Shown: positions 1,334-38,792, counted from the first letter of the stretch. The stretch is DNA of 64,000 bases from Macrostomum lignano (GCA_002269645.1 NIVC01001431.1:1-64000); one strand, 5' to 3'. Made by a program: numbers and translations. The notes: generated by a model from the letters alone, not told the origin.

Positions 1334-1745
1334 CACCCAAACGCTGTTTTACGTTCATAACACGGGATACCAGTTTTGCGGCCAAACGTTCCCCCCACTT
1401 AGTTGTAGGATCCGCAGCAATCTCTCGAGCTCCTGCTTCGAGTTGTTGATCGGCCTTTGAACGCTCTGCACGTCCGAGTGCTTCTCGTATGCCAGGTCGT
1501 GTAAGAGACACAATTTATCGAGCCGATTCTTCCCAGTATCGCCCCGCGCTAAACGTTCTCTCAATCTGGTCCGGGGCCGCAGAATTGGTAACCCCCGGCA
1601 AATGAAGCTCCCCTGGGAGATGATTTATTACCCAATTAACAATACCAAACCCCGTCTGACCTCGACGACGAGATTTCTTAGCTCGAGTCGACTTTGCTGC
1701 TGTCGAACGCACTCGCTTCTTCTTCTTCTGTCCGTTCCCATCCAC
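1330..1745 (-). CDS. PLA2X (parvovirus-type phospholipase A2-like protein of adintoviruses), frameshifted
   Basis: Rebuilt sequence HLPGYQFCGPGTRLRERLARGDTGKNRLDKLCLLHDLAY...ADQQL has the YxCGPG Ca-loop and the HD..Y catalytic motif, after a basic N-terminus (KKKKRVR). Confidence 0.85.
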
Positions 1746-1849
1746 TTAATTGTACCAAAAGAACCAATTGCATTTGCTTATACACACAGTGGTTAAATCA
1801 CGAGCATAATCAAAGTGACAAGCCGCCACCCACCACCGACGACGGGCTC

Positions 1850-2302
1850 CGGGCGTGACCAGCATCACATGTTAGTGCTGCCATCGCGAACCGCCACCCT
1901 CCGGTTGTCGGTGCCACACCCCGGCAGCTGGCCCTCGCGAGCTCGACCGACTCTACCGGGGCGTGACGCAGCGCTGGACAGACAGATGAACTTTCTCATC
2001 TGACGTGTTGTGCAGGATCACGCGGAGTTCCCCGGTATAGTCCGGGTCAACCACGCCACCCTGCACATTTAGGCCTCGGTTGGCCCAACTGGACCGGCTC
2101 GCTATCCGACCATAGGTGCCCGGCGGCAGCATCACCCGGAGGCCGGTGCGAATGATGGCCGTGTCAAAGGCTCCACAGTGCGGTCTTCGCACGTGGCTAG
2201 GTCGTAGCCCACCGACCCGGCCGTAGCTCGCCGAGGCATCACTGCCCCGGCATCCGTGAGCACTACGCGCAGCGGGACCGTCGAGCAAGAGTCGGAGCTC
2301 AT
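1850..2302 (-). CDS. dut: dUTPase, frameshifted, with motif IV missing and motif V garbled
   Basis: PRRATAGSVGYDL (motif I), GRIASRSS (II), GGVVDPDYTGELRVIL (III). Confidence 0.9.
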
Positions 2303-2561
2303 AGTGGCTGCGGGATCATAGTTCATCTTATGCTTAGGAGGTTCTTCGTCCTCTAAAATAAGTCTAGTACTACCCGCGTAATCCTCGTCCAATCAAAAAA
2401 ACTAAGCCTAGTACTAATCCCCTGCACTGCCATCATAGGCCTAGAAAAACGAAGAGAAAGAAGGAAAGGCGGATTCTTGCATATACATTCGATAATTGCG
2501 CGCATATATTGTGTGCAGAAAAAGCATAAACAGACAGAAAACAGAGAGCGGAGAGAACAAG

Positions 2562-5500: not shown

Positions 5501-7008
5501 ATAATCCCAAGACGTGGTGTGAATAAAGCTCGCCAGACATTCAGGACAATAGCGCCGGCGTTTAGCACGAGAACTCAACAGCCTATCCAGATTTAGCACC
5601 GCCATGTAGTGTCCATACTTGAATTCTGCGTAAGGTGGTATGAACAGACAATTGACTGGCGCAAGGTCACCAGTGGAACGACGAAAATTAAAAAACAGCA
5701 CGGCAGTATTCGTGGCATGACTCCAGACAAACACACGCATCAGTCTAATTCGAGGGTTCAGCCGGCAAAACTTTCTGTAGCTCCCAATTGAGTGACGAGT
5801 CACTCCGGCGCGCGTAAATCGAAAGCTTTTCAGCCAAGGCCTGTAAGACGCCTTTCGCCTTTTACGGGCTTGCCCTTCGACCTGTGAGGAAAAGACGCTC
5901 GACACGACAGCATACATAAAACAATCATGCTGATCTGCTCGGTGCGGGCGTAGAAACAAAACCGCTCCCGGCATACGACCAACAGCCAGTGGAACGCGGA
6001 ATGGAACGGAACGGGTCGGAGCGGATTCTGTTGGACCGCCGCCCGCCTGCGCGCCCGCCGCCGCCGCCGCCACGCCCGCCGCCACCACCACCGCCGCCCC
6101 GCCACCCGCTCCCCACACGTCCTGCTGCTGCTGCCGACGACTGCTAGTGTTCGACTGTAGTAGTAGATATTTTCGGCGGAATATGCACAGCATAACGTCG
6201 ACCTTGACAACGCCGAGGAACTTCCAGTTACTACCTCGGGACTGAAAGTTGTCTAATTTAGCTACCAGATCGTTTGTTGCCTCGCTGTACCATTGGTTGA
6301 AAACGTCCTCAGAGAGAAGAAGTACACGGCGGCCGGCGGCTGGAGCATTCGCATCGAAGGAGACCATAACGACTTTGGAATTGAAAAGGGCGCGATTACT
6401 TCTACCTCTTCGTTGTGGGGGGATTCACCAGCAGCCGTGTCATTGGCGGGGGGATAACGAGTACGATACATTTTTACATTAAGATGTATACATGTACGGA
6501 GTAAACAGTCCGCAGATCCGAGAGAGTTAAAAAGACGAAAAAGTGGAACTTGCAGTTGTGGAAGTAACTCGCTGGGTGGTTCGGTCTCGCCATCGTCCTC
6601 GTCCAGCAGAGGCGTGAACGTCAGAAAGTTCGCCCGACCTCGGTGTGCGGACTCGGTATGTTGTACCGACCAGCCTGGTGGAGTGTCCTCTTCGATTAGC
6701 CGACGCACTGGTTCTCGAAGTAAAAGTTGGTCTGGTTGATAGCACGAGCCATTGTGCGAGTGCCCATGGAGGGCGGCTTGACTGTTGAATCTCTGCCGGC
6801 ACACAGGGCATCTGATTTGTTTCGTCGTCGTCGTCGACGGCTGGAATGGTGTTGGCGATTGTTGGCGACGGGGTGGTTGTGATAATCGCCTAAATAGTTT
6901 GCTCGGTGGTAAAAATAAGGAAGGAATGCACAGCCTTAAGTTTGGTGGACAGTCCAAAAATGTCCTCCGCCGCGTGGTTAAACTGTATTTTACTTTGCAG
7001 AGATACAA
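2562..7008 (-). CDS. polB: Protein-primed family B DNA polymerase (N-terminal C2H2, endonuclease VII domain), two frameshifts (~5280, ~6300)
   Basis: YADIES (ExoI), CYVC...DHCHLSG.PRG.ACMSCN (EndoVII), YLDANSLY (motif A), KLLNNAVYGK (B), GGDTDS (C). The N-terminal ORFs hold LDNFQSRGSNW and CPVC..F....L.GH. The true start is uncertain. Confidence 0.93.
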
Positions 7009-7298
7009 TTATGTAGACAATTTGAATATTTAGGAATGAACAGCAGGCTAGTAAGTAGTAGGTCGTTGATGGTGGTTGAAAGAATAGAATCGTATAACTT
7101 AGTCAATGGTAGTGTTTTTAGGGGTCTGAATCAGTTCGAATGGATCATCATGATAAACAAAAATCGTTGGGTACGCATGGGAATTTTACCTTCAGGTAGT
7201 AGTGGTAGGTGGTGTTTTTTCAACTTGGTAGGGGCTCGGTTGAATTTAGGTGTTTATTACTACAGCAGAAAATCGTTGTTGTTAATATCAAGTGCATG

Positions 7299-8099
7299 TC
7301 AGAGCTCACGACGAATGATGCCGCCAACAAGATGGGCTAGATCGGTCGTAGATGTATCCGATCTGATTAGAATTTCGTGTACGTTCGAGTAGTCCTGGTA
7401 GTGTCGTGTAAACGCCTCGTCTAGCGATCGTAGATAGTCCAGGGAGATGCCAGTCTCCTCACCGCTGCGTCCGCGCTGCGCGATGCGTTGAATGGCCAAC
7501 TCCGGGTCAATGCGCAGGTAAATAAGCGTCGTGTTCGCGCCGGTAAAGGGTACCCCAGTCGCTTCGAGGACGTCTAGTTGGCGCTGAGCAATCGCCCATT
7601 CGGTGTCAGACAGCGAGCCTTGACGGTGTAGTACGTCTTGGAATGCTCGAGCCGACCCGAGGCAGCGGTCGAGGATAACCACCTTGTTGTTGGATTGTTG
7701 GTTAACCTCATTCCGGACCTGGGTGGTAACACAAGATTGGCAAAAGTAGCTATACCGTGCGTGTCTTTCGACATTGGTTGTACATGCAGTAGGAGCTATA
7801 CGAAAGGAATTGCTAGATACTATAGTACCACTTACTTTGCTGTCTCTGTCGAGCAAGTCGTGGGAGACGTGCTGTTGGAATGCGACGGCCGGAAGCTCGC
7901 CTCGATAGAATGACTGAAGCAGATTTACCGAGTCCGGGAGGAGCGGGTGTCGCGCGTACTGGTGAACAGGCTCGGGACCGAAGACGGCTTTGTCGGCCCA
8001 ACCCTCGAGGCGGGAGGTGAGAGCCAGTTCTCGAAGCAACGTCGACTTCCCGGCACCGATTACGCCCTCCAGGAGAAAAATGCGAGACTGGCTCGTCAT
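7299..8099 (-). CDS. Deoxynucleoside kinase (dNK/dGK family), in frame with the upstream TBP-like domain
   Basis: IFLLEGVIGAGKST P-loop, PEPV, NLLQSFY, AFQ, ILDRCLGS..F, IYLR.DPE....RI.QRGR.GE lid. Confidence 0.9.
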   Translation of the reverse strand: MTSQSRIFLLEGVIGAGKSTLLRELALTSRLEGWADKAVFGPEPVHQYARHPLLPDSVNLLQSFYRGELPAVAFQQHVSHDLLDRDSKVSGTIVSSNSFRIAPTACTTNVERHARYSYFCQSCVTTQVRNEVNQQSNNKVVILDRCLGSARAFQDVLHRQGSLSDTEWAIAQRQLDVLEATGVPFTGANTTLIYLRIDPELAIQRIAQRGRSGEETGISLDYLRSLDEAFTRHYQDYSNVHEILIRSDTSTTDLAHLVGGIIRREL

Positions 8100-8678
8100 A
8101 TTGGCTAGAATTGGAACAAATTCTGGTTTCGGAGCGGCTTCCTGACACAATTGTTTAACAATGTTGATCATTTCTAAAATCTGGCTAGTAGTCTTTGCAC
8201 CTATTATAACGATCTTAAGGGAATGAAAAATATTGCACACCGTCCTATTGAGTGGAGCAGTACTACGGAGGGTGATGGCTTGTGGGAATATCTCCGCGTC
8301 GTAATACAGCCGAGCTGTGTGAAACGGCCCGATAAAGTTTTTCAGGGTCGAAAATTTGAGTCCAGGATAGTGGAGCAGACCAACGGTTGTAGAGCTGATT
8401 ATACGAATCGATGTTTTGATTAGTTTAATTACTTTAAGGTGTATGAAATTCAGGGCACGTAGAAGTTGGACTCGGGATCTACAGCCATAAAGCGTGAGTA
8501 GTCCTCCGGGGTAGAACTGACATGAAAATTGGGGCAGTCCGATACGAAGCATACTTGGCTTGGCGGAGTATAATTTGGAGGGGATTCCCGCCTGGCCTAG
8601 ACGTTTTTTTAGCCTATTTAAATCTAACTTTTCTCCTGGAGGGGTACTCGTTCTGGCTTGCACTATTAGTAGGACCAA
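8100..8678 (-). CDS. Divergent TATA-binding-protein (TBP/TLF)-like domain
   Basis: Two TBP half-repeats: KLDLNRL...YSAKPSMLRI...CQFYPGGLLTLYGCRS and YDAEIFPQAITLR...CNIFHSLKIVIIGAKT..QI. These resemble the TBP consensus YEPELFPGLIYR...LIF.SGKIV.TGAK. Confidence 0.8.
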
Positions 8679-8820
8679 TCTCTGAAAAGAATAAATACGA
8701 GAAAAAATTCTGTATAACGGTTAAGATTTTTATATATTTCTGGGTGATGCGTTTCCGTTTACGGAGAATGGTAGTTAGAGTTATAGGTATAGCTTCCCGC
8801 CACCAAGTGAACGCTAACGG

Positions 8821-9912
8821 TCACTGTGCGAAGACTTCATCATCTTCGCTGTCCATGGGCTCCGTCGAGGCCCCCGAGTCCACGTCCCCTAGCGCTGGGT
8901 TGGAGGCTGCAGCTTTACCCGCTTTGGGGACAGTATTGGTAACACCGCTTACAAGATCTTTGACGGGAGTCACCGTGATCCAGTCTTCAGCTGCTGCTGC
9001 TGTTGTTGCTGCTCCAGTCGTCTTGGTGGGGCGTTTGGCGGGGCTGCGACGAGTTGGGCCTTGTCGTCGTTTTCGTCCGCTAACTGGTTTCACTAGCGTC
9101 GTCGTAGTTGTTGACTCTTCTTCCTCAGTTGCGGCGGTGGCGGCGATTGGAGTCGACGTAGTTGGGATGTGAAAACGCAAAGCTTGGGCTAGCATCGGCA
9201 GGTGTTTCGGGTCGTCGTCGACCAGTGTCAGCGAGCGAAGGGCGAGGCCGAGGCGCCATGTCTTGCTTTCCTTCTGACGATAAAGACTTGTGAGCTGAAC
9301 GGAGAGATGGTAAAGACCGCTAAGTCCTCTCAGCTCGCTTGTGTCAACTTCACGCGGGTGTTGATTAGGCAGTGCTCGAAAGGTGAAACATGGTAGTGTA
9401 GGTTTTATGGCAATCCACTGGGCAAAGCCCAGGTCGCCTTCCTCGGTGGCGCGGGAGATGCGAAGCAGCGGCATCGGATCGCCCATTTGCTTTAGTTTGA
9501 TAGCGATGCCTCTTTCGACTTGTCTAGCGAGAGCAAGGGGATTGAAGAGCAGTAAGAATTCATGGTCTAGTGAGTATGCACATGTAACAAGGATGGCGAA
9601 TTCTTAAACTTACTTGATGCATTGTAGGAATTTGCTGCAAAAGGCCGATGATGACAGTCCGATGGCCACCGCCTCACGGTCTCCGGCTAAAAACTCTCCG
9701 GCATCCTGTATTTGGATACCACGAAGAATCTCGACTGGGGTCGTGGTTTGAATCACTAGTGGGGACCTCCTGTCGACTTTGGGGGGCGTCCACGTTACGC
9801 TACGGAAGGTGCAGCTTGCTGTAGGAGCGTTGGGTTCGCCTAGGTGGAGATTACCAACGTCGGCTTGGATAGCACCCGGTTGGAATACGGATTCGGCAGC
9901 GAAACCAGCCAT
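8821..9912 (-). CDS. Putative OB-fold ssDNA-binding protein, two exons (9912-9614, 9523-8821), about 333 aa
   Basis: The two ORFs share one frame and are separated by a 90-nt GTAAGT...polypyrimidine-TAG intron with two in-frame TAA codons. Motifs PLVIQTT..V...GI, F...LQ.I.Q.E and VQLTSLY....WRLGL.L.SL plus an acidic DSEDDEVF tail resemble NCLDV/T7-gp2.5-type SSBs. Confidence 0.55.
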
Positions 9913-17594: not shown

Positions 17595-19778
17595 CTATTT
17601 AATTGGAGTTAAATTGAAAGAGCAGGAAGAGCAGCATAGAGCTAAAGCGCAGGTGTCCTCATTGGGAACACTAGACTCGATCGAGTTGCCTATACTAGCA
17701 CTACATGTATTGTTGATGCCAGTAGCGAGGGGGCCGCATAATAGAAACCCCAGCTTTGATGAGATGGCCACTGGGCCAGAGTCTCCACGCACTACCGTGT
17801 CACCCACGATTTGGTAATAGAAGTCTGAGCCTATTAGAATAGATATAGGCGTGTGCTGATCCCGAGGATCGTATGGATCCGCTAAATCTAGAGAGTGCAG
17901 GTGTTCGAACCCTGTCACTTTGACTGAATGTTGTGGTTGACATATTGTCTCGACGATATTTGTACGAATCTGGATCACTTCGAAAGAATCCATTTTGCGT
18001 AATGCGATGTTAGCACTACCAGACTGCAGAGCCGTGCTGTTTCCAGCAAACGACGAGACGTTAAGCCGTTCCAGTGAATTCGCCTGAATGCCCAGCAGGT
18101 CACAAATGTCCTGACGAATGTAGCTGCGATTACTGGCCGTGTCAAACAGAACACGCACCATCATTTCCCGGCGACCATCTGTGCTGAGCAAAATGGCTTT
18201 GGCAACGGGCAGAGCCACTGCCGGATTGTCAGAAATGAACATTGTGAAGGCAAAAGACTCTGTCACAGATGCTAAGCACTGATTCGGCGGCGAAGCTGGT
18301 TTCTTGGCGGACGTGGATGGCTTATCTGACTCCCTGCCTGCCTGTGAATTTTTAATGCAGATGCTGACATGGTGTCTACCTGAGCAGCCCCGACATGGTC
18401 TCGGATCTTTGCATTGAGGTGCCAAATGTCCCAGGCGCAAGCACCTAAAGCAGCGCTTCTCAGACGCAAGAAAGGCCCGTCTCTGATCAGCGGAAACGAG
18501 GTTGGTACAGGACTCAGACGAGTGTGAGCCTTTGCAGTAGGTGCAGAAGATCTTCGAAGAGGCCTGTTTGGACGCCTTCGGCTGAAGTGTCACCAGAGTC
18601 GAGACAGACGAATGCCGTGGAGAAGCTTTGCTACTGCTAGAGCCAGCAGGTGATGAGGACTTCGTCGACTCTTTCGAACTCAGGAACTGCCCTTGCCCAG
18701 CACTTTCGCGAACCGTAATTTCCTGCTTTAGCGATCGCAAGAGGCTCTCCAGTGAATTAATGTCCGATCCCTGCATTTGCGCGGCTCTCAGGAGCTCTAA
18801 CCGGAAGGCTGATGGGCACTTGCTCATCAGCGATGGAACCAAAAGTGACTCGTAAGAATTGGCAGAGACACCCTGAGCGTTCAGGCTACGCATGGCAGCA
18901 GAAATGTCATCGTGAAATTGCTGCAGAGAGCGCAGGGATGCATCAGACAGGCGAAGCTCCGAGATTTTATGCATTAACTCCTTGACAACCACCTCGGGTT
19001 TGCCAAAGCGCTCTTTTAGAATATCCACCGCAGTGGAATAGTTGTCAGCAGTGATAGCCAGGCCTCTAATGCATGACTTTGCCGCCTCAGATAGAGAGGC
19101 CACGAGATAATTAAACTTGTCAATTTCAGAAAGTGAGGTGTTTGAATTGATCGAGGAATCGAATTGATCCCAAAATGATTGCCATGTTGAAACCTGCCCA
19201 TCGAACGTGGGAACCTGCAGCTTAGGGAGCTTGACTTGAGGTTGCTGCGACTGAGTGGGAGGCGAACTCGCCTGAGATTTAAAATTACGAGAAAGAGCAG
19301 CTTCTAACCTTTTGATGCAAGTGAGACACTGCAGCCCATAGCGCTCACAATCATCGCGCTCCGACTCTAACTGCTCATCTGCAAGAGACTCGTCTATCGC
19401 ATCGTCCAGTTGCCTCAATATACTGAGCTTCGAATTGAACACCTCGAGATACGCAGCCGCCTCAGCGACTTCGACTTCTCTCTGCAAACCCCTGTCCAAC
19501 AGCACTTGCACTTTGCCGACCGCTTTAGTAACGCTAGACCGAATGCCTGCCCGTTTCCGGACAGCAGCTGCCAATTCATCTTCTGAGAGAACCATGATTG
19601 AGATGCGAACGACAACGAGAACACAGAGAAAACCGGCAGCGAGAATCCCGACTAAAGAACGTCTAAGCGACCAAACGGAGACAAAGGTGGAAAAGAGAGG
19701 ACAAGAGGGCAGGAGACAAACTACGAGTAGTATGCGAATAGAAAAAAGAACATCGAAAAAACAAGCACATAGAGTCAA
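17595..19778 (-). CDS. gag: BEL/Pao Gag-protease ORF
   Basis: VKLPKLQVPTFDG...W.SFWDQF (DUF1759-like), Cys/His knuckles CTYC..H, CFRC...GH...C and CRGC...HH..IC, and aspartic protease VLFDTASNRSYI. The ORF stops before RT. Confidence 0.92.
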   Translation of the reverse strand: MTLCACFFDVLFSIRILLVVCLLPSCPLFSTFVSVWSLRRSLVGILAAGFLCVLVVVRISIMVLSEDELAAAVRKRAGIRSSVTKAVGKVQVLLDRGLQREVEVAEAAAYLEVFNSKLSILRQLDDAIDESLADEQLESERDDCERYGLQCLTCIKRLEAALSRNFKSQASSPPTQSQQPQVKLPKLQVPTFDGQVSTWQSFWDQFDSSINSNTSLSEIDKFNYLVASLSEAAKSCIRGLAITADNYSTAVDILKERFGKPEVVVKELMHKISELRLSDASLRSLQQFHDDISAAMRSLNAQGVSANSYESLLVPSLMSKCPSAFRLELLRAAQMQGSDINSLESLLRSLKQEITVRESAGQGQFLSSKESTKSSSPAGSSSSKASPRHSSVSTLVTLQPKASKQASSKIFCTYCKGSHSSESCTNLVSADQRRAFLASEKRCFRCLRLGHLAPQCKDPRPCRGCSGRHHVSICIKNSQAGRESDKPSTSAKKPASPPNQCLASVTESFAFTMFISDNPAVALPVAKAILLSTDGRREMMVRVLFDTASNRSYIRQDICDLLGIQANSLERLNVSSFAGNSTALQSGSANIALRKMDSFEVIQIRTNIVETICQPQHSVKVTGFEHLHSLDLADPYDPRDQHTPISILIGSDFYYQIVGDTVVRGDSGPVAISSKLGFLLCGPLATGINNTCSASIGNSIESSVPNEDTCALALCCSSCSFNLTPIK

Positions 19779-20077
19779 TCTACCGCAAGCCGTGCAGAGT
19801 CAGAAGCCAGCAGCACCGGCTCGAATCTAGATGAGAGCCCCTGGTTCCAGAACGTCACGAAGTTGGCCCGTGCTATGATGTGAAATCAGGTGTGGTCGAG
19901 CGGAGACCGTGACCGCCACGGCAGAAGCCGGTTGAACCAGGAGCGAGCCACTGTCGAGTGCAGACGGCTAGAACAGCGAACTGCAGAGAATGTTGAGCTG
20001 GGCCGGAGTTGAGGTCGAGTTTGGCTAGTCGAACTGAGCTTCTAATGCTAGATTTTGAGCCAGGTTGAATTCTTCAA

Positions 20078-24951: not shown

Positions 24952-25870
24952 CTAAAAGATGCGCCATCCCCATCAAAATATTTCACAACAGCTACAGAGC
25001 TACGCCCCTTAGTGAGAAATGAGACGCGGTCTTTCAAATTACCGCGACTATTAAGCGACTCCCTCAATTTGAAATCGACAGCGTCGCTCGAAGCCGACTG
25101 GCTGCCGGGAATCGACGACCGCCGGCTGTCCAGAGTGGCCGGGTAGCCAACCGACGAGCCGGCGTCCCAGCGCCAGTCCAGCTCCCAGTCGCTGCTGTCG
25201 TCTCCGCTGTCTCCACCACCGTCGTAGCGACGCTGCCGATGCTGGGTTTTCCACTCGCTGCCGATGTCAATGCCGACATCCGAGGCGGTCAGCGAGGCGT
25301 GGACATGCCGCAGCAGCAGGCCGGACATGCCGGCGCCGATGCCGCTTCTCTTCGACATCGACGGCCGCCGGCGCCGCTGCCAAGTCCACGTCGTCGATCG
25401 ATCGTCGGGGACAGTGGATCCGCCGTCGCCGCTGAGCGCATCGGCCAAGTTGGCGTCGAGCTCCTGGTGCTTCACTTCGCTGGCTAGGCGGTCGCGCATG
25501 CCGCAGGCGAGCCGGTCTCTGCGGTCCTCAGACTGGTCCGAGTCGAAGCTGAACACCGAGGATGAGGCGGCGAAGTCCTCGTCGGCAAAACTTGGCGCCC
25601 TGGCCAGCAGTTCGGGACGGATCTTCACGATTAGGACGCAGATGTTGCCGCTGGAGCCGTGCGACTGTGTTTGAGTGGAAGAAGGCAGTTATGTCTGAGG
25701 ATTTTGGTCACAGATTGAGCAGATGTCAAAGTAATCTCCTGGATAGCTGGATCAGCAGGACGCTGCAGTCAGTTTTCTTAGAAAAGAGACTGAGGTCGGT
25801 GGGGTAGTGTGCTCTTCTTGAGAAGTCCGATATTTTCTCGACCGAATTAGTCTATGGCAAAACCTGCTGA

Positions 25871-27171
25871 ACTACTATGTGCACAATTATCCGGGCGTTT
25901 TGGAGGTGGGGTGGGTGTCAACCCACCCTGCCTCTCATTGGCTGGCGCTCGGCGCGCGCGCGCCGCAGGCGCGTGGCGCCAAGCGCCATCCAGGCGCGCG
26001 GCGTCAATCAGGCGCCAATTAGGCGCCCATGCCGCAGGCGCACCCTCCCGATATGTACACCCTCCCGATATGTATGCCCACCCTCCCGATATGTATGCCG
26101 CAGGCGCACCCTCCCGATATGTACCCCGATATGTACACCCTGCCGATATGTATGCAGCAGGCGCCCATGCCGCAGGCGCCCCAAGCCGCAGGCACCCCGA
26201 GTGTACACTCTCCCATGCCGCAGGCACCCCGAGTGTACACTCTCCTCAGTACACTCTCTGATGTACACTCTCCCCAGTACACTCTCCCGATATGTAGTCA
26301 ATGATATTAGGCTAGCGAAAACTACTTATAGTAGGTGAAATTGCGTATATTTACATAAAAAAGTAGATAAAACATATTGGTAAGTGTGAATAATGACGCA
26401 TATAGGTGTACAGAATTATCCAAAAAACATACAATGTAGGTGCATATTATCGATATATTGACAGAAATAGACAAAATACAAAGCAGGTACTGTAGGTGCT
26501 AATAAACATAGGTGGAAATACACACAGTATAATGCACACACTCTAGATTCAAATTATGTAGGTGCATAGGCTAAAATACACACACTGCAAGTTAAGTATA
26601 ATGCAGGAAAATTTAATACATAGCATATAATGTAGGCGCATTTTAAACAATACATTTTCCATATTAACCCGCAGGTACAAATTTCAGTGCATAGGCTAAA
26701 ATACACACACTGCAAATTGAGTATAATGCAGGAAAATTGTGACATATACAACATATGTATGCAAAATTAAGCGTATAATGTAGGTGCAAAGTAAAATACA
26801 AGCAACCGGCTCCATAGTAAAGAGACACGCCCCCAGAGCCAGGGCCGGGGGGTCCCAAGTACAGTGCGGACAGAGAGGAGTAACATAGAGAAATTCCTCC
26901 CCAAGCCTCAAATAGGGTTTTTTCAAGGGGATCCCAAGTACAGTTCAGGCAGAGAGCATTCCAATCCTCCCCAAATGGGGGTTATCAAGGACCCCTCACA
27001 TTGCACAGTGGAGGTAGAGTAACAGACCGCATACAAAGAGAATTCCAGTCAAACTTTACAGCACCTCCCACCCCAAATGAGGGTTTTAGTGGATCCCCAG
27101 AGGGTAGCTCTCCAAGTTGAGGGATCCCCCAGTGTGTTGCGAGGTCCAAGTACAGTGCAGGCAGAGAGTAA
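25871..27171 (+). repeat. Left TIR (~1.3 kb)
   Basis: Reverse complement of ~33481-34889; contains GC-rich CCTCCCGATATGT/GCAGGCGCCCATGCC modules and an AT-rich block. Confidence 0.92.
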
Positions 27172-27342
27172 TAGAGACCGCCCCCATGTACAGTGTGCTC
27201 CCGGGTGTCAAATGATGAAGGACCCAGCCTCAATGTTCAGGAGGTGTCAAATGATCCCGCCAGAATGCACAGTTGGGGTGAGTTTAGAACATAGGGGAAT
27301 CCCAGGCAGAGAGGTGTAAAAAGACAGATCCTTATCTCTCAC

Positions 27343-30300
27343 TCACTCACGAAAGCCATACGGTCGGCTGGCGGCCCCATACACCCTCTTAGTCATCACG
27401 CGCTGGAAAGTCTTGTCCATCTCGAGGGTCCTTATTGTGCAGCTGGCCTTATCGCGCCTGAACTGGGCCTGGGGCAGCCGTACAGTCCCGCCGTGGCGCA
27501 GAATCTGCTGCAGTTCATCCTCGCGCTCCGCAATCTCGGGCGTGACTCTGATGCCCTTACACTTGAGCACCGAGTACAGCGACCCGTCAGGCTTCTCCAC
27601 CACGTACCGGTAGAGTTTGGGGCCTCCCGTGGTGAACTGTACCATGCGGCAGCCTGCAGGTACTTCGTCAGTCCACTGCCCCAAACTCGAACCGCCCGGA
27701 GGCTCGTACTCGCCCGGAGAGCAGCGGTATACGACCCTGTGAGGAGGTGGAGGAGGATATAGTTTTAGGGGGAGAAAGAGAGACAGAGACAGTTGAAAAA
27801 ATTACTTACGAATCGGTATCGGCGTAAATGACGCGGGTTCCTAGACCCTCCAGAGCCTCGTAGAGTCGCAGCCGGGCATGGGAGGTGGTGAAAACGCCAA
27901 TAGGCACATTGGCGTACTTAAATGCGCGCTCGCTAGCGGCACCAAATCGGGGCTTGTACTCGAGCATCATGAAGCTCTCCCCGATTGGCTCGCACGACTT
28001 GACCTTGATGGACGGGTCCGTCAGGCGCTGCAGCCACGCCTCGTAGCTGTCCACAATCTCTGTGGAGGTCAGGTCGTCGCGCTGGCAGAATTTGCCCAGA
28101 GCCTGCAGGGAAAAAATAAATTTTTGTATATCTGGCTACTGTAAGTAGAAAAACACGGTCCCCCACTGCAAGTAGAAAAACCCCAACTTACGAGTTTAGA
28201 AAAATCTTGGCAACAAAGCGCAGGCCAGGATTTTCTTCCACCTTTTCCAGCCGGACGCCTTCGCGGTCGAAAAAGCTGGCCATGTAGGCAGCCTTGGCGT
28301 CCTCAGTCATCCCCGGTGAACCGCTAGACTCGGCTTTGAGCTTTAAAAAGGTGTTTACATAGTCTGCAAACAGCCCGGTCCGAGTCTCGGTCCAATAGGC
28401 CAGGGCATGAACTGACTGCAGCTTGTAACCCAACTGCAGGGCCTTGTGGAGCTCTGGGGTCGCCCACGTGCCGCGGAGCATTCTCTCAGCGTCAGTGTGT
28501 GTACACTCGCTGCTGCACTGTTTCTCCATGCAGACGCGGCAGAGGCCGAAAACCAGCTTCTTGTTAATCTTGGCGGGCAGTAGCGGGATGTGGAGATTGG
28601 TTGGCGGCAGAATCGATACCTCGGCGATGCCAAAATACCCAGCCAGCTGCTGTTCATCCATTAGATGAGGTTCGGGGTGGTAAACCGGGTGCCCGACGGG
28701 GTACTTGTCAAACTTGTTGACAGTCGGGTAGAGCGACACCTAGGGGGGATAAGTAGGCTAAACTCAAACGCATGTCAACTGTGTGTGTGTGTACAAGTGT
28801 ACAAAATTACCACATCCCGATAGCGCAGCTCCACAGTCTCAGTGGCCTCGGCGTGCGGGACAAAAGCCTCGGTGCGACCGCCGAACAGGGCATCCTCCAG
28901 GCGAATAGGCTGCTGGACTGGCGCTCCCTCGTCCTGATAGTCGTGCTCCCACATGACACGTACATTGTAGGCAGTGGAGAGCAGGCGAGTGAAGCGCTCA
29001 GTCTCTTCATAAATTTCCCGCATTGGCTGGTTCTTGAGCGGGTGCAGCACGTCGCCGTTGGGGAAGCACTTGGGACACCCGTGATAGAAGCACCCGTGAA
29101 ACTGCAGCACCGTCCTACTCTCCGGGTCGAAACCGTCCACCTTACGGCCCATGGCGAAAGCCTCGCCGCCAGAATCGGCTGTCCTCAACCGGCCGCCAAA
29201 CTCGGTTGCATTCAAATGTGCCAGCCAACACCGCGCCTTGTGCGACTGTACATCTGATCGGCGAGAAATCACCCCAAGAGTGTTGGGCTCCATAAACTTG
29301 GAGGTGAATACCGACATAGCCAAGCCCGAAAGTGTTGGATTGGACAAATGCGTCCAGTCCGCAAATGTCCTTAATCAGGCGGGTGTATTTAAGGCAGCCT
29401 TCCCGCAAAATTAGCGTGTCCTGCAGACAATAGTCCAGATACTCCTTATTAAAATTAAACACTTTGCCCTCCTGCTTGGCCAACCAGTCCGCGATGGAGT
29501 CGTGCTGCTTATTCTTCTTCCCGCCGTACATTTCAATTGAACAGTAAGGCCCCACGTAGCCCCAGTTTTGCGGCTGGTTAAACACGTGCGGGAAATCTCC
29601 TTTGGTCAGTTGGGTGCCCAAACCAAGCGCCTTTGGGAATTGCGCCAGACCAATAGGGATGAAGTTGAGGCTGTCCTTGAAGGTGATCTTGTCACACTTC
29701 ATGTACATTAGGCGGCTGTTCTGGAAGATCACCTGAGGCTTCTTCTTGGCCAGTCCGTTGAGTAGGGCGCCGAGCAGGAGGAATGCGTCATACGCAGAGC
29801 CGTTGTGTGCTATAGCAATAGCGCCCTGCTTGAACACGCTAGTCAACCAGCAGTAAAATGCATCAAGAGAGTGCGGCCCGACTGATACAAACTCTCGCAT
29901 CCCGCAGGCACAGTCGCTGTGGGACACACAGCTCGTGAAATCGCGAGCCAAATCGCGTCCCGCAATGCAATTGGCTAAGCTGTGTAGTCCCCCGCACGCG
30001 CCGCAGCGGGGCCTGGGGAAGAGTTTGGGACACGCCTCGCAGGAGGTAGCTGCCGTAACCAAGTGTACCCGGTGCTGCTTTCCCGAGTCCACGTACGTCT
30101 CAAAATCATAGTAAACGTACGGGGCGCTATACTCTTTGGCTTTGGGCGGGGTGACAAAGCACTCGTGGGTGGCAGTTTCGTCGTACTGCTTGCAGACTGG
30201 GCACTTGGCGTGCGTGACCGCACTGGTGTTCTGGGGCTTGGCCTACTTTCAGTTCTTCTAGATAGCCACACGTGCCGCAAACGTGGACTGAATCACAGCG

Positions 30301-32542
30301 AGATCTGCCCGCCTTATTCTTGCGCTTGTGATTCTCTAGGCACTGAGCATTATAGCAATTTAGCCCGCAATCCTGGCATCTTACATATGCTCGGTTAGCC
30401 CTGCAGTTGGAGCCCGGAGTCTTGCAGGTGCTACACGCATCCGCACACTTGTGCTTGGCGGGGTCGCTATCATAGGCCATCTCGCACTTCGCGCAGTAGC
30501 AGAGGCTGCCGAAAAACGCAGGCAGCTTGGTGATCACGTTGAAGTGCTGCTCAACCAGGTGCAGGTGCAGAATCTCGGTGCCAGGCAGGTTGAAGATGCA
30601 CCGGTTGGCCTCCTCTGCCCGGTACACGCGTACACCAAAGTTGTGGCCAGGATGCAGCCGGTTCAGGGCACAGATCGCTTCGGGCAGTGCATCCAGCCCG
30701 AAAGGACCGGCCTGCGAGACGATTTGATGAGTCTGTGTGGGGGGTAAAATATTTCTTTTAGTATTCCTTATCGAAAAATTTCTCATCAGAGTATGGTTCT
30801 TTTAGTATTCCATGATACTGTGCAAAAAAATCTTATCAGAAAATATATCTTTTAGTATTCCATGATACTGTGTAAAAATTATTTTAGTATTCCCTGGTAC
30901 TATGTAAGATTTCTTATCAGAAAATATATCTTTTAGTATTCCATAATACTGTGTATAAATTCTTTTAGTAATCTATGAAAATAGCAGAAAATATATCTTT
31001 TAGTATTCCATGATACAGTGGAAAATTAGTGCACAACTTACCGTGTAGAGGCCTGCTTTGACTTGCAGCTCAGTCGCCAGCTTAGTCTGCTTGGGCGAAT
31101 TGGCCTTGATCCTGCGCCACACATCCTCGGTGATGCGCTTGGCCACAAATTGCAGGTAGGCGCAGGCCACGACCAGAGCACGCAGCAGGCACCTCTTGTA
31201 CGTGTTGTTGATGCGGACATAGTGCTTGGAGAAGGCGTGCCTCTCTTCTAGATGCTTGTTCTCGAGGGCACAGCCACCTCGAGGTACCCAGGCCTTTAGC
31301 AGACGGATAGAAAAGTTGCCCGTCAGTACAGTGGCATCCGACTGCACAATCTTGTTGATGTGCTTAAACAACAATTCAGCCGTCATGCGGGATGCACGCA
31401 CCGGGGGAGTATGGGCCGCTTTGAGCATATTGTCGCTCTCGAATTTCGCAGCCATGAAATCCTCGCCGGCTAAATCTTGCTTAAAGACATCGAGCATACT
31501 AGCGAATGTCTCGCGTAAATCTTCGGTGTCATCTAACTTCACAACATATTCAACACCCTTTGCCCTAAACTTGGGCAGGTCACGCTGATTATCTAGCCGG
31601 GCCGTGAAACCTGCATGGAATGAGTAGGGGGTGTGAGTCAGCCAGGGTCTGTCTGGGGATTGGGGGGGCTGGATAACTCACCCGGTCCGGTAACAGATTC
31701 CGGCTGTGTTGGCGGGACAAACGCGTCTGAAAAAACACAAGGAGATAAAAAAACAGAAGAATCTGTCATTTTCCTGACCCCAGCGTGTTTCCCAACCCCA
31801 GCCCTCAGTCGCAGCAATTTCTAATCAGAGTCTTTGTTTACTCTGCCGTCCCCGCAGCAACTCTCTGTCGCAGCAATTTCTTATCTGCACCCCCGCTGCA
31901 GCCTGTCACACTACCCCAGTCTTTGTTTACTCTGCTGCCCCTCTCCCACAGACCCTGCAGCTGTTGCTGCTGTCTAGCCCTCCCCAGCAACTCTCTGTCT
32001 GTTTTTGCAGCAATTTCTTATCTGTACCCCAGCTGCAGCCTGTCTGGGTAGCGCCCTATCCGCACCAATTTCTTATCAGTCTGTCCCCGCGCTACACACA
32101 CCCCGCAACTCTCTGCCACCGCCCTGTTGAAACTTGTCTAGCCCCACCCCAGTAGTTTTTTTTGCTACAGACCCTGCCGCAGTACCCCACCCTAGCAACT
32201 CCAGTCTAGACCCCTGCAGCTGTCGCACCACCCCTGCCCGCGGTCCCAGTCTTTGTTTACTCTGCTGCTCCACAGCAACTCTCTGTCGCAGCAATTTCTT
32301 ATCTGCACCCCAGCTGCAGCCTGTCTGGACAGCACCCTATCTGCAGCCCCAGTCTGTCCCCGCACACCCAGCTGAAGCGCTAAACCCCTGCAGCTGTCGC
32401 AGCAGCTCACCCCCCTGCCGCAGTACCCCACCCTAGCAACTCTAGTCTAGACTAGACAGCCAGAAATTAATTAAAACTTACCATAAAGACGTTGCCTCTT
32501 GTCAGCCAGGAAAGCAGTTGCTGCGGCGCTGCGTTTAGCCAT
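27343..32542 (-). CDS. polB: Spliced protein-primed PolB with a Vsr-like insert, about 1,275 aa when repaired; exons 32542-32482, 31726-31682, 31610-31042, 30732(or 30711)-28811, 28739-28192, 28102-27810, 27736-27343
   Basis: YYDFET (ExoI), AHNGSAYD (ExoII), YCLQDT (ExoIII), FHGCFYHGCPKC (Vsr-like). Splicing restores RDV|VSLYP, LNS|LWGK and YADTDS|VVY. All introns are GT..AG with matching phases. Three indels remain (+4 at ~30210, +1 at ~29345, -1 at ~28095). The first two exons are less certain than the 3' ones. Confidence 0.88.
31780..32460. repeat. Patchwork repeats in the predicted first pPolB intron
   Basis: Recurring GCAGCAATTTCTTATCTG.ACCCC.GCTGCAGCCTGTC and CCAGTCTTTGTTTACTCTG modules. 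Confidence 0.75.
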
Positions 32543-32781
32543 TTTGCAAACAGAGAGCGTGAGAGAGCGGAGAGAGAAGGATTATCTCTCTACCCTGGCT
32601 CTGGGGGTCTGTATATATACTAAAAAATCTGCTCAGCTTGCCTGCTATTGGTCAAATCGCCAAAAACCAACCAAAATCATAAAAAATCACCCTCAAAATC
32701 ACCACCCACCCCACCCTCCATCTGGGGGTATATAAGGCGCTGCACGGCTGTCAGAGAGCTCTCTGCTGCTGCTGCTAAATC
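32543..32781. promoter_or_regulatory. Putative bidirectional Pol II promoter
   Basis: GTATATATAC (32611-32620) upstream of the pPolB ATG and TATATAA (32729-32735) upstream of the PC4-like ATG. Confidence 0.55.
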
Positions 32782-33267
32782 ATGTCTTCTATCTCTCTAT
32801 ACGAAAACTTTGTGGCGCGGATGCCCACATTTGAAACTGAACACAACTTGATTGAAATTCGGCGTCTCTACACAGACGAGGCTGGAGTGTGGAAGGACGG
32901 CTTCCCTGCAATCTACTTGAGCGAGCGAGAGTGGGAGAAGCTCGAAGCTGCGCGGCCTGACCTGGAGGCCGCTGCCCGCCTTCACGTGAACAAGCGGGTC
33001 CTGTTGGGCAATTTCAAGGCAGTTGAAGCTTCGCGAGGGAGGATCCGTTTGCGGCGCAATTGGCTCAACGTGGACCCAAAGTTTAATTGGCGCTACACGA
33101 TCGAATTCACGCCTGATCTGTGGCGCCGGATGTTTGCCTCCCGTTTGGACAAGCTCTTCAAGCTGGAGCCCGAGGCCAAGAGAGCCAAGACAGAGGACAA
33201 TCTGCAGGACTGCCTTGACAGCATCAAACCCTACCCTTGGGGAAATCTGTTTGACGAGGGTTGCTAA
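32782..33267 (+). CDS. Tandem PC4/Sub1-like ssDNA-binding protein (161 aa)
   Basis: Intact ORF. F....LIEIRRLYTDEAGVWKDGFPAIYLSEREWEKL aligns by eye to the PC4 motif IDIREYW.D..GE.KPG.KGISL...QW..L, and a weaker second repeat follows (IRLRRNW...YTIEFTPDLWRRM). Confidence 0.7.
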   Translation: MSSISLYENFVARMPTFETEHNLIEIRRLYTDEAGVWKDGFPAIYLSEREWEKLEAARPDLEAAARLHVNKRVLLGNFKAVEASRGRIRLRRNWLNVDPKFNWRYTIEFTPDLWRRMFASRLDKLFKLEPEAKRAKTEDNLQDCLDSIKPYPWGNLFDEGC

Positions 33268-33480
33268 TTGAGGCATGCCGCATCCGTACAGCGCGAACCC
33301 GATTTTGGTAAGCTTAATCTCATATAAATTGCATATAAATTAGATATAATCTGTCTATATTGAACACTAAAATATTGTTTACTTTGACAGATGTTTCGAG
33401 AGCGCTGATGAGGAGGAGACTGCCCTGGCTGAAGATCGAGCTCGAGTTTGACTGATAAGGGAATTTCTGTTTGTACTCTG

Positions 33481-34889
33481 TTACTCTCTGCATGCACTGT
33501 ACTTGGGCCTCGCAATACACTGGGGATCCCTCAACTTGGAGAGCTACCCTCTGGGGATCCACTAAAACCCTCATTTGGGGTGGGAGGTGCTGTAAAGTTT
33601 GACTGGAATTCTCTTTGTATGCGGTCTGTTACTCTACCTCCACTGTGCAATGTGAGGGGTCCTTGATAACCCCCATTTGGGGAGGATTGGAATGCTCTCT
33701 GCCTGAACTGTACTTGGGATCCCCTTGAAAAAAACCCTATTTGAGGCTTGGGGAGGAATTTCTCTATGTTACTCCTCTCTGTCCGCACTGTACTTGGGAC
33801 CCCCCGGCCCTGGCTCTGGGGGCGTGTCTCTTTACTATGGAGCCGGTTGCTTGTATTTTACTTTGCACCTACATTATACGCTTAATTTTGCATACATATG
33901 TTGTATATGTCACAATTTTCCTGCATTATACTCAATTTGCAGTGTGTGTATTTTAGCCTATGCACTGAAATTTGTACCTGCGGGTTAATATGGAAAATGT
34001 ATTGTTTAAAATGCGCCTACATTATATGCTATGTATTATAATTTTCCTGCATTATACTCAATTTGCAGTGTGTGTATTTTACCCTATGCACCTACATAAT
34101 TTGAATCTAGAGTGTGTGTAATATACTGTGTGTATTTCCACCTATGTTTTATCAGCGCCTACAGTACCCGCTTTGTCTATTTCTGTCAATATATCGATAA
34201 TATGCGCCTACATTGTGTGTTTTTTGCTGCTCAGCTCCAATATGTACATTTTAATATGCATTATGCGTCATTATTCACACCTACCAATATGTTTTATCTA
34301 CTTTTTTATGCAAATATACGCAATTTCACCTACTATAAGTAGTTTTCACTAGCCTAATATCGCTGACTACATATCTGTGTATGCATACATATCGGGAGAG
34401 TGTACTGGGGAGAGTGTACACTCGGGTGTCTGCGGCGTGGGAGAGTGTACACTCGGGGCGCCTGCGGCTTGGGAGAGTGGGGCGCCTGCGGCATGGGCGC
34501 CTGCTGTTCTGGAGGGTGGGCATACATATCGGGAGGGTGCGCCTGCGGCATGGGCGCCTGCTGCTCTGGAGGGTGGGCATACATATCGGGAGGGTGCGCC
34601 TGCGGCATGGGCGCCTGCTGCTCTGGAGGGTGGGCATACATATCGGGGTACTTATCGGGAGGGTGGGCATACATATCGGGAGGGTGCGCCTGCGGCATGG
34701 GCGCCTGCTGCTCTGGAGGGTGGGCATACATATCGGGGTACATATCGGGAGGGTGGGCATACATATCGGGAGGGTGCGCCTGCGGCATGGGCGCCTGATT
34801 GGCGCCGCGCGCGCCAGCCAATGAGAGGCGAGGAGGGTTGACACCCACCCCACCTCCAAAAACGCCCGGATAATGGGGCCCTTAGTAGT
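33481..34889 (-). repeat. Right TIR (~1.4 kb)
   Basis: Inverted copy of the left TIR with a different number of internal modules. Confidence 0.92.
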
Positions 34890-35031
34890 TGCTGATCCCT
34901 GAGCACGCGCCCGGGTGAGTTGCGCATGCAGGCACACGCTCACACAGGGTGAACACAAGGACCACTCAGGTAGATCGGGGACTCCGTTTCTTGGAAAACT
35001 TTAGGAAACAGATTTTCCGAAATTGTACATT

Positions 35032-35300
35032 GGGGTTGTAGCCTGGTTGTTACAGCGTCGGACTCACGACTTGAAGGTCAGGGGTTCGATTCCCGATCCC
35101 ACTGGAACAATTTGTGTCTTTGAGCAAGACGCTTAACTCTGCATTTGCGTCAGTTCACCCAGCTGTAAAATGGGTGCCAGCATTGGGGTAATTGAGGCTG
35201 TGTGTGTGGCGACCCCCCAGGGACTGGACTAAGCAGCCTTCAGATGCACCGCGCAATACATGTAGCTGCTGCTGAGCTGTCGGTTGCACAACTGGCCCAA
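35032..35300 (+). mobile_element. tRNA-derived CORE-type SINE
   Basis: A-box-like TAGCCTGGTTG and B box GGTTCGATTCC, then TGTGTCTTTGAGCAAGACGCTTAAC...CAGCTGTAAAATGGG, which resembles the MIR/CORE domain. Confidence 0.75.
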
Positions 35301-36959: not shown

Positions 36960-38792
36960 CTAGGTCGCCTTAAGGCGGGCAGGCGCCTGACGGAGCCAGT
37001 CGGCAATGGCTGTTTTAACTATATTTGATTCGCACTTGCCCGACTTGCTACCCTGGGCTACCAGTCGCCTAACCAAGGAAATTGTGTTAGCAAAATCCTT
37101 GAAGGCAGCCTTTCCACCTCTTTTGCCTTCGTAATTAAAAGACGCAGCCAATTGCGTAGTGATAAACTTTGGCATTAACATAAAAACGGCTTTGCGCTGA
37201 GAATCAGAAACCATGCAGCCGATATAGGAGGCCAGCATGGTTGATTGTTTAGGAATCCTTAAGTACTGTTCCAGCTGATCCAATTCGTCCTTTGTGCTTA
37301 CTGGCAGCACAAAGGGCAAATTTAGCTTTGCAAGCTGGGGCATTTGACGACTAGCCGCCAGTTGTTTTAGCAGCTGGTTATTTTCCTTCGCTAAAGAAAA
37401 TGTGGAGCAAACTAAACGCATTAAAGTCGTCTCGTCATCTCCCGTGTAACGAAAGTTTTCCTCTGCGCAAAATTGCGACAAAAAACTTGTACCCAATGGA
37501 GCAGCATTATCCGCCCGTCGCGATGGGCTTGGAGTCAAATGACTGTCCAGTGGGCCTGGTCCAATGGTGTCGTCATCATCACTGGTGTATTCAAGCGAGC
37601 AGCCAGCTGCCGATTGTACCGGTGTAGCAGGACTGAATGGATGAGGTTAAAGAGCATGACAATTAAGCTTTCAAAAGCGAATATTTTAGTGGTTTGGATT
37701 ATACATTGAAATCACCCAGGCCCGCACTTACACCGACCGACCAGAGAAATTCATGCTAGCGGCTGTTTCTTGTCGTTGAACCGAGCTGCAGGCGCTTGCA
37801 GACCGTCCAGCTGCTGAGTGATTTGAGCTAGCGACGCTAGCACTAGCAGCAGATGCTTGCTTCTGTCGTTGAACAGAGTTGTAGGCGCTTGCAGACCGTC
37901 CAGCTGCTGAGTGATTTGAGCTAGCGACGCTAGCACTAGCAGCAGATGCTTGCTTCTGTCGTTGAACCGAGTTGTAGGCGCTTGCAGACCGTCCAGCTGC
38001 TGAGTGATTTGAGCTAGCGACGCTAGCACTAGCAGTAGATGCTTGCTTCTGTCGTTGAACCGAGTTGCAGGCGCTTGCAGACTGTCCAACTGCTGAGTGA
38101 TTTGAGCTAGCGAAGCTAGCAGCAGATGCTTGCTTCTGTCGTTGAACCGAGTTGTAGGCGCTTGCAGACTGTCCAGCTGTTGATGGATTTGAGCTAGCGA
38201 CGCTAGCAGCAGACGTCTCGTCATCTTGTCGATGCGAACTGGCACTGGCAGAACAACCATGGAGCGAAAATAGCGAGCCAATATCACCAACGTCCTCTTG
38301 CTGCAGCATATCAGTTTCGGATTCAGTCTCCGAATCGGATTTAGACTTCGACGACTCGTCATCACTTGATACATATTTATTCTTCTTACGCTTTTTCTGT
38401 GTTGGTTCCATATCGATAAGTCGATGAACTGGTTTTCTTTGCCTAGGTGCTTCTGAGTCAGTAGTCTCCAGACCAGGTGTATCCTCGCCCGCAGCAGCAG
38501 CAGCTTCTAGCTTCTTTAGCTTTTCGCGTGCTTTTCGTTCAGTTGATGCCATACCTAAGACTCTAATAGAGCATGAACGCCATAGTGGCTCAAGTGTAGC
38601 TGTAGGCTTTTCCATTTTTGAACGTAAAGAGGCGACTCGACTAGTTGATTGCGAAGTGGGGTAGGCAACACTGTCCGAAGCTAATAGCCAAATCGATGGT
38701 ACATAATCAACTGACTTGTCCTCCAGAAACTCGACTATTGTGAAAGCCTGGTTGCTCGAATGCATCTGAAAGTGGTGTAATAAGAGTAACAA
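36960..38792 (-). CDS. EnSpm accessory ORF2 (DUF4806-like C-terminus), probably two exons
   Basis: N-terminal FTIVEFLEDKSVDYVPSIWL, ~93-bp tandem repeats, and C-terminal LPVSTKDELDQLEQYL...FNYEGKRGGKAAF...IADWLRQAP. A probable short intron lies at ~37630-37735. Confidence 0.7.

Follow-up and report, generated by a model that had tools for sequence, protein, structure and literature searches.

Positions 25871..34889 of a 64,000-nucleotide stretch of Macrostomum lignano DNA (GCA_002269645.1, NIVC01001431.1:1-64000; hereafter the window) are occupied by a compact element of 9,019 bp, which is a frameshifted copy of a multi-copy family encoding a spliced Polinton-type DNA polymerase (pPolB) and a protein of predicted PC4 fold. 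An earlier note on this DNA had described a complete insertion of about 9.0 kb with both ends, a 6-bp target site duplication (TSD) and terminal inverted repeats (TIRs) of 1.3-1.4 kb, and this description is confirmed: the same six bases lie at 25865..25870 and 34890..34895 (plus strand), the flanking sequence beyond them is dissimilar, and a left TIR of 1,306 nt (25871..27176, plus strand) faces a right TIR of 1,414 nt (33476..34889, minus strand). The left TIR is composed of an (ACT)2 tip, a GC-rich minisatellite, an AT-rich part and a near-identical inner part, and the two TIRs are 84% identical with gaps counted and 93.6% when only substitutions are considered, with 98-100% reached in their inner ~540 nt. 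The element's ends have the sequence 5'-(ACT)2…(AGT)2-3', the opposite of the usual Maverick arrangement 5'-(AGT)2…(ACT)2-3', and the two tips of this copy are mismatched at positions 8-17.

Between the TIRs lie a minus-strand pPolB gene and a plus-strand open reading frame (ORF) of 161 aa, which diverge from a 239-bp spacer (32543..32781). This spacer has TATA-like boxes near 32,612 and 32,730, is 94-98% conserved among copies and is likely to act as a promoter in both directions. Only 166 and 208 bp are left over beside the TIRs, in agreement with the earlier estimate of less than about 220 bp on each side. The further claims that nothing but pPolB and a PC4-like single-stranded-DNA-binding protein is carried, and that integrase, capsid, ATPase and protease are lacking, also stand: in a Pfam scan (E<=0.01) covering every stop-to-stop frame of 60 aa or more that the element contains, 76 in number, the only matches were DNA_pol_B_2, in two frames, and one LRRNT match below the cut-off, with no match to integrase (rve), capsid, ATPase or protease and none to an RNA-polymerase gene or a helicase family, and tblastn with the integrases, capsids and ATPases of the genome's own Polintons found no match inside the element. 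The absence of protease and minor capsid is judged from Pfam and the lack of space, and hidden integrase or capsid exons were considered and ruled out, since none occurs in the 76 frames.

The 161-aa protein (32782..33267, plus strand) is predicted to bind single-stranded DNA by means of a PC4/Pur/Whirly fold. Its Pfam PC4 match falls below the cut-off (E=0.016), its family-B homologue reaches E=1e-5 (families A, to which the window copy belongs, and B are described below), and its structural model, with a score of 79 in the predicted local distance difference test (pLDDT), superposes on human PC4 with a root-mean-square deviation (rmsd) of 1.7 over 66 residues (Foldseek E 0.003) and on Pur-alpha with Z 9.2 and an rmsd of 4.5 over 118 residues; prediction from the single sequence was poor (pLDDT 43). 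Within family A the dN/dS of this gene is 0.49, a value that is uninformative because dS is only 0.03. Resident Polintons encode PC4 homologues (31% to the A protein) as well as homologues (52%) of a dUTPase gene found in family B.

The pPolB gene consists of seven exons separated by six GT-AG introns, all on the minus strand. The coding part of exon 1 (32482..32542), a predicted exon with a basic MAKR start and a matching first exon in family B, is followed by exon 2 (31682..31726, 45 nt), exon 3 (31042..31610), exon 4 (28811..30732), exon 5 (28192..28739), exon 6 (27810..28102) and exon 7 (27343..27736), which encodes the C-terminal palm and thumb, ends in the stop codon and has its junction in likely-RNA contigs. 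Introns 1 (31727..32481, 755 nt) and 2 (31611..31681, 71 nt) are predicted from comparison between copies, exon 2 being unchanged (100% identity) in all 18 of the other copies compared and intron 1 only 65-82% alike. Signs of splicing are available for the remaining four: intron 4 (28740..28810, 71 nt, with a family-B intron at the matching codon), intron 5 (28103..28191, 89 nt) and intron 6 (27737..27809, 73 nt) are skipped in contigs of both sequencing runs guessed to be RNA (X12 and X14), and intron 3 (30733..31041, 309 nt, with tandem repeats) in X12 only, the RNA status of these runs being the tool's guess and not record annotation. In contigs of two DNA runs (X1 and X15) the introns are not skipped, intron 6 being retained in both. 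The spliced contigs differ by ~4-12% from the window copy and, being only ~88-96% like it, stem from other copies. A 967-aa protein in nr labelled Macrostomum lignano (ALD16274.1) likewise spans three exon junctions, with 85-98% identity to the window exons; close UniRef homologues bear that label too. Run X15 carries a second organism label, and its unspliced, low-depth matches are a hint of a second host only.

The catalytic motifs of a protein-primed polymerase are present, with SLYP and KxxxNS in exon 5 (Pfam DNA_pol_B_2, E=8e-15) and YxDTDS at the end of exon 6. Upstream of these, exon 3 is predicted to encode a terminal-protein (TP) domain and the Cys motif of a vOTU domain, and exon 4 the vOTU His strand, a Cys-rich region, the exonuclease and an insert, FHGCFYHG, that is common to the window pPolB and a Nematostella protein. 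We take this insert to be VSR-like on the strength of its motif; it has no sequence match among solved structures. The N-terminal region aligns with outside polymerases, C-x-x-R-A being invariant in 7 of 7 aligned sequences and the His motif lying in exon 4, and is predicted to carry TP and vOTU domains, an arrangement described for polinton pPolB in bioRxiv 2024.03.18.585575; the VSR label leans in addition on bioRxiv 2023.08.22.554363. An Atlas search with exon 3 returned unnamed eukaryotic clusters only. The window copy itself is interrupted by frameshifts near 30,210, 29,330 and 28,095, the last of which puts exon 6 out of frame; for these, mutation and assembly error are indistinguishable.

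The earlier note had proposed that further copies of about 9 kb with different 6-bp TSDs should be sought, and many were found. A TIR query of the genome gave 91 matches, and the 25 places fetched from them comprised 19 TSD-bounded pPolB elements, two truncated ones and four with PC4 and no pPolB; together with the window copy and contig C211, this makes 21 TSD-bounded copies of family A at 20 distinct sites, two contigs repeating one site. All 19 measured copies (8,455-9,773 bp) contain both pPolB and PC4 and give no match to integrase, capsid or ATPase. A 35-place pattern describing the A-type end occurs 225 times in the genome (control 0), and among the 100 of these 225 matches listed, 29 of 34 inward-facing pairs, as counted by hand after exclusion of one 165-kb non-pair, lie 8.1-9.9 kb apart. 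The case that the note had held against its own proposal, a single copy accompanied by a parent with identical TIRs, is not what was found: copies are numerous, and none of the full Polintons examined shares their ends. Diverged A-related elements with a PC4 gene (73-76% identical) and no pPolB match within 20 kb are found on C479, C2296, C2409 and C578.

Bases 1-7 and 28-31 never vary among the 68 A-type ends compared, and the intervening 20 bases occur as 31 variants; in the window copy this spacer, flanked by the unvarying 7-nt tip on one side and a conserved block on the other, occupies positions 8-27 of each end (25878..25897, plus strand, and 34863-34882). It is of constant length and is apparently assembled from recombining short blocks, and family-B ends carry a comparable variable spacer. 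The identical variant is present at both tips in 20 of 34 A-ended elements. The TIRs within one copy are at least 98% identical (substitutions only) in 13 of the 19 A copies, and diverge widely from one copy to another. On C566, a family-B copy, one TIR has been extended to take in the 3' end of pPolB, which suggests that TIR length can shift by copying of one end onto the other.

Querying with the exons uncovered, at about 70% identity, a sister family, B (66% identical to A in amino-acid sequence), which has TIRs of 0.2-0.9 kb, 6-bp TSDs and AC-type ends, measures 9.5-10.4 kb when free of insertions and has intron positions in common with family A; its end pattern occurs 109 times (control 0). 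Neither integrase nor capsid was matched by tblastn inside the TSD-bounded B copies, nor integrase inside the 19 A copies. Among nine oriented B copies, one carries PC4, another ORF and a dUTPase (the gene set of C694 resembles it), and the other eight have pPolB with no recognisable second gene, so that PC4 is not essential. The tidy two-gene layout emphasised by the earlier note therefore holds for every measured A copy and fails in most of the B copies examined.

Long B copies were considered as carriers of an integrase and rejected, as their length is due to long interspersed element (LINE) insertions in the glutamine-rich first exon; different LINE-type reverse-transcriptase elements lie at or near this glutamine-repeat exon in C2286, C1945, C485, C583 and C694, and in two B copies the LINE frame continues that of the pPolB exon, possibly reflecting a repeat-targeting LINE. 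C126 was likewise rejected, holding a two-ORF insert, which we take to be a nested DNA transposon, with a CIDE-N match in one ORF and no Pfam match in the other. The 40.6-kb C271 element, which appeared to be an integrase-encoding parent within shared TIRs, proved to be a canonical Polinton with TIRs and TSD of its own nested in an A copy (C271:276939-317558). Nesting is frequent, being seen also of B within B-type ends and of A within A, and A and B pieces occur together in one cluster (C271, C1485, C2368, C157).

The polymerase is under purifying selection: across four pPolB regions, pairwise dN/dS runs from 0.054 to 0.149 among A copies and from 0.069 to 0.171 among B copies, for pairs that are not independent. 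Nine of the 19 A copies are open through the five long exons (3-7), and the other ten have at least one break. Between A and B the protein is 55-71% identical with synonymous sites largely saturated, and the minimal, intron-bearing plan likely predates their split. The suggestion of the earlier note that this could be an element class rather than a random deletion derivative is supported by this selection and by the old sister family.

The polymerase phylogeny that the note had called for places A and B in a single long-branched clade (support 1.0, branch 0.76; FastTree, 146 sequences and 771 columns, with proteins under 800 aa and four further matches left out), far from the resident Polintons. 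The nearest outside polymerases are ~38-40% identical to A and B, and six resident Polinton polymerases only 15-23%, which is why no parent can be named. The same identity gap recurs in a HMMER search of 1.84 billion representatives, the closest outside proteins (30-40%) being labelled as from cnidarian, mollusc, echinoderm or insect genomes or from metagenomes. Viral and metagenome contigs contained no close relative outside the genome when queried with a single protein, and a profile search of them yielded relatives of 28-38% only. Several long contigs with related polymerases also encode integrase or ATPase; of 26 outside loci of at least 7 kb, one has terminal inverted repeats and encodes an integrase, and several incomplete ones have no integrase match. 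L230, a complete-looking, Polinton-like metagenome contig of 13,696 bp with 502-bp TIRs starting in AC, encodes a related intronless polymerase and an integrase and is a natural AC-ended integrase carrier. In the Macrostomum genome itself, C234 holds a decayed, intronless pPolB of the same type, separated by ~15 kb from genes for a Polinton ATPase, capsid and integrase; its polymerase fragment is 43% identical over 265 columns and is grouped outside A and B in the tree.

Canonical Polintons are abundant in the genome, measuring 14-18 kb with AG-type ends and encoding rve integrase, ATPase, capsid and polymerases of endonuclease-VII or other type. A single Polinton integrase query gave 115 genome matches, mostly in open frames, and capsid-family matches numbered 73. 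The earlier note had suggested a check for full-length Polintons sharing the TIRs, and none was seen among those examined: four full-Polinton regions have no DNA similarity to the element in blastn, and ten further integrase loci have no A- or B-type ends. A Pox_A32 family search of the genome returned nothing despite the resident ATPases, which marks such family searches as insensitive here. Two loci (C2301:56000-70947 and C3189:41200-55822) appear to be palindromic Polinton derivatives in which a PC4-integrase-capsid-ATPase arm is doubled head to head; having no polymerase match, they are a mirror image of the element studied here.

A further class of elements shares the ends of A and B and none of their coding capacity. 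Nineteen end pairs picked for having no pPolB match are all bounded by 6-bp TSDs and made of long inverted arms (~2.4-4.6 kb, 92-99.9% identity); 18 of them measure 6.7-9.4 kb, the remaining one being 14.4 kb with an insert, and none matches any of 16 Polinton or pPolB queries. Fifteen have A-type ends, with just a few hundred terminal bases in common with A, and form a young family (C56, C93, C176, C181, C212, C303, C436, C530, C625, C660, C977, C1009, C100, C201, C261); four have B-type ends (C293, C695, C1379, C126). A bipartite partner with integrase or capsid between the same ends was rejected, these 19 pairs being palindromes free of such genes and the ten integrase loci showing neither A- nor B-type ends. 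Strand-displacement replication of linear DNA, as in adenoviruses and linear plasmids, is expected to yield products of this kind. It would give rise to homogenised TIRs, mosaic ends and snap-back-like palindromes, and the palindromes and TIR patterns seen here may well be its products.

Taken together, and in line with the earlier note's proposal of a self-synthesising satellite, we consider it probable that the family is a Polinton-derived satellite, autonomous in replication and dependent for integration on an integrase supplied from elsewhere, the donor likely being a resident full-length Polinton acting in trans. Its links to such Polintons are indirect, namely a common 6-bp TSD length, the Polinton nested in an A copy, and the PC4 and dUTPase homologues that resident Polintons carry. 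Host Pol II would transcribe both divergent genes and the host spliceosome would process pPolB; the TP-vOTU-exonuclease-palm polyprotein would release its terminal protein and prime synthesis at the trinucleotide-repeat ends, the displaced strands being coated by the PC4-fold protein as synthesis proceeds by strand displacement. The replicating form would be a free, protein-capped linear DNA, which may also be packaged. Replication through TIR panhandles would homogenise the TIRs and throw off giant palindromes, a retroviral-type integrase would insert the product in trans with a 6-bp duplication, and the non-coding palindromes with the same ends would exploit the element's polymerase as a third tier.

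Several observations weigh against this reading. The window copy is broken at three places and its tips do not match; the expressed, spliced sequences derive from copies other than that of the window, in runs whose RNA label is guessed; the TP, vOTU and VSR labels are founded on motifs and papers rather than folds; PC4 is missing in eight of nine oriented B copies; the pairs behind the dN/dS values are not independent; and no free linear or protein-capped DNA is seen in the assembled contigs analysed. A serious objection concerns the ends, as all integrase-bearing elements with visible ends are of AG type, whereas those of A and B are AC, so that a resident integrase may reject them.

A bolder version is possible, if doubtful: the family could be an animal Polintovirus satellite, the first of its kind: a linear replicon of the nucleus, bearing introns and equipped with an origin and a polymerase of its own, that hijacks both the integrase and the capsids of Polintons and is itself parasitised by non-coding palindromes of the same size in a three-tier system. 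If this were true, a limit on packaging would underlie the ~9 kb that coding and non-coding forms alike measure, about half the length of a resident Polinton.

The difference in ends also lends some substance to an alternative that we regard as unlikely, in which the element replicates itself and draws on another integrase source, be it a cognate AC-ended helper that is absent from the assembly, unseen or lost, the retroviral-type integrase of another transposon, or the nuclease-like insert of pPolB itself. Its ends are unlike all resident Polinton ends seen, the end matches covered amount to 100 of 225 for A and 100 of 109 for B with 114 of 2,318 integrase candidates scored, and the decayed pPolB of C234 lies near Polinton integrase genes. 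Against this, the C234 polymerase does not group with A and B, the long end pairs that were opened owed their length to elements nested inside them (LINEs, a Polinton and an insert of two ORFs resembling a DNA transposon), 29 of the 34 A-type pairs among the matches listed fall within 8.1-9.9 kb, and a constant 6-bp TSD is the signature of a Polinton integrase (PMC8097293).

That the element lives chiefly as a nuclear linear plasmid, an episome transmitted outside the chromosomes whose integrations are occasional dead ends, seems quite improbable. Its gene set matches a minimal linear replicon, linear plasmids of the cytoplasm do derive from polintons minus the morphogenetic module (bioRxiv 2024.03.18.585575), and the mosaic ends, with the same variant at both tips in only 20 of 34, suggest recombination among free molecules; but halving the 225 and 109 end matches gives ~110 A-type and 55 B-type integrated elements, non-coding ones included, numbers that point to routine integration, and introns and a possible Pol II promoter suit expression from integrated copies. 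Least credible of all is that the element is a Polinton derivative of the ordinary non-autonomous kind, made by deletion, its pPolB neutral baggage and its amplification wholly due to a helper. In favour of this, the defining integrase and capsid are absent, deleted and non-coding relatives exist, and ten of the 19 A copies are broken somewhere. Against it, a pPolB dN/dS of 0.05-0.17 is contrary to neutral evolution, two synonymously saturated families keep a common plan, six introns have been gained, splicing is seen in transcripts, and a parent did not turn up, the Polintons examined (four regions, ten integrase loci) having neither DNA nor ends in common with the element.

The window contains other elements as well. 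A partial Polinton-like element lies at 900-9600 (minus strand), with an endonuclease-VII-type pPolB (2562-6424) split over two frames, a dUTPase (~2000-2320) and an ATPase-like stretch (~940-1260). At 7299-8720 it has a frame of 473 aa with TBP and deoxynucleoside-kinase Pfam matches; a TBP-like gene looks unusual in an element of this type. At 17595-19799 (minus strand), matches to DUF1759 and a peptidase mark the gag-protease of a probable BEL/Pao long terminal repeat retrotransposon. To the right of the element lie a tRNA-like stretch (35025-35110) that ARAGORN does not call and that is perhaps a short interspersed element, and a DUF4806 ORF (36960-37538).

No description of the element was found in the literature searched, Macrostomum papers included; Repbase, Dfam and subscription journals lay outside this search, and it may have an entry in a repeat library. 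That Polintons synthesise themselves by protein priming has been inferred largely from gene content, and in this family, in a laboratory flatworm, the replication module survives by itself and under selection, transcribed and spliced, with dependent palindromes of its own, which makes free intermediates, the source of integrase and packaging in trans directly testable. Surveys that demand five Polinton proteins or intronless ORFs (bioRxiv 2023.08.22.554363, PMC8097293) would miss such elements.

Compared with known systems, the element resembles Polintons/Mavericks (Polintoviruses, adintoviruses) in its long TIRs (within a range of 0.1-1.5 kb), 6-bp TSD and trinucleotide-repeat ends, and in a pPolB, putatively of VSR type, with the predicted order TP-vOTU-exonuclease-palm. 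Polinton termini are 5'-(AGT)2 or (AG)3 and rarely (AC)3A, whereas those of A are 5'-(ACT)2 and those of B a close variant, AC-initial like the type found in swamp eel Mavericks, which have AC…GT ends and 6-bp TSDs (PMC8097293). It differs in lacking integrase, capsid, ATPase and protease, which belong to the Polinton core (reviews PMC5718144, PMC6431247), in measuring 9 kb as against 12.7-24.6 kb (PMC8097293), and in having six introns, four of them seen skipped, in contrast with the intronless core genes of intact Mavericks (PMC8097293, bioRxiv 2022.07.12.499685). Reduced elements of other kinds have been described (PMC12721341, bioRxiv 2026.10.13.758929). Eukaryotic linear plasmids that live in the cytoplasm or mitochondria with their own RNA polymerase or organelle expression differ from the element in that it has spliceosomal introns and no RNA-polymerase gene. 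Non-autonomous Polintons, as Kapitonov and Jurka reportedly set out in 2006, depend on a helper integrase and have TIRs and 6-bp TSDs, a description that fits the non-coding palindromes; A and B, unlike these, have kept a polymerase that is selected and expressed, and no DNA is common to them and the autonomous Polintons examined in the genome.

Transpovirons and Tlr1 are similar in being capsid-less linear elements that parasitise a larger virus-like one, but their polymerases are pPolB-derived fusions with an SF1 helicase that have no exonuclease (bioRxiv 2024.03.18.585575), whereas the pPolB described here keeps the exonuclease region and the element has no helicase match. The fungal cytoplasmic linear plasmids of pGKL1/2 type are also capsid-less pPolB replicons with TIRs. 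Such plasmids are not known to have introns or to be integrated with TSDs; being cytosolic, they contrast with an element that is spliced and nuclear, integrated in chromosomes and found in an animal. They arose from polintons by loss of the morphogenetic module (bioRxiv 2024.03.18.585575), and in the pGKL-type system a 9-kb plasmid is aided by one of 13 kb. The element behaves as a Polinton replication module or linear plasmid, set apart from Polintons proper by the absence of integrase and virion genes and by genes that are not intronless, and it offers an animal, nuclear parallel to the transition from polinton to linear plasmid.

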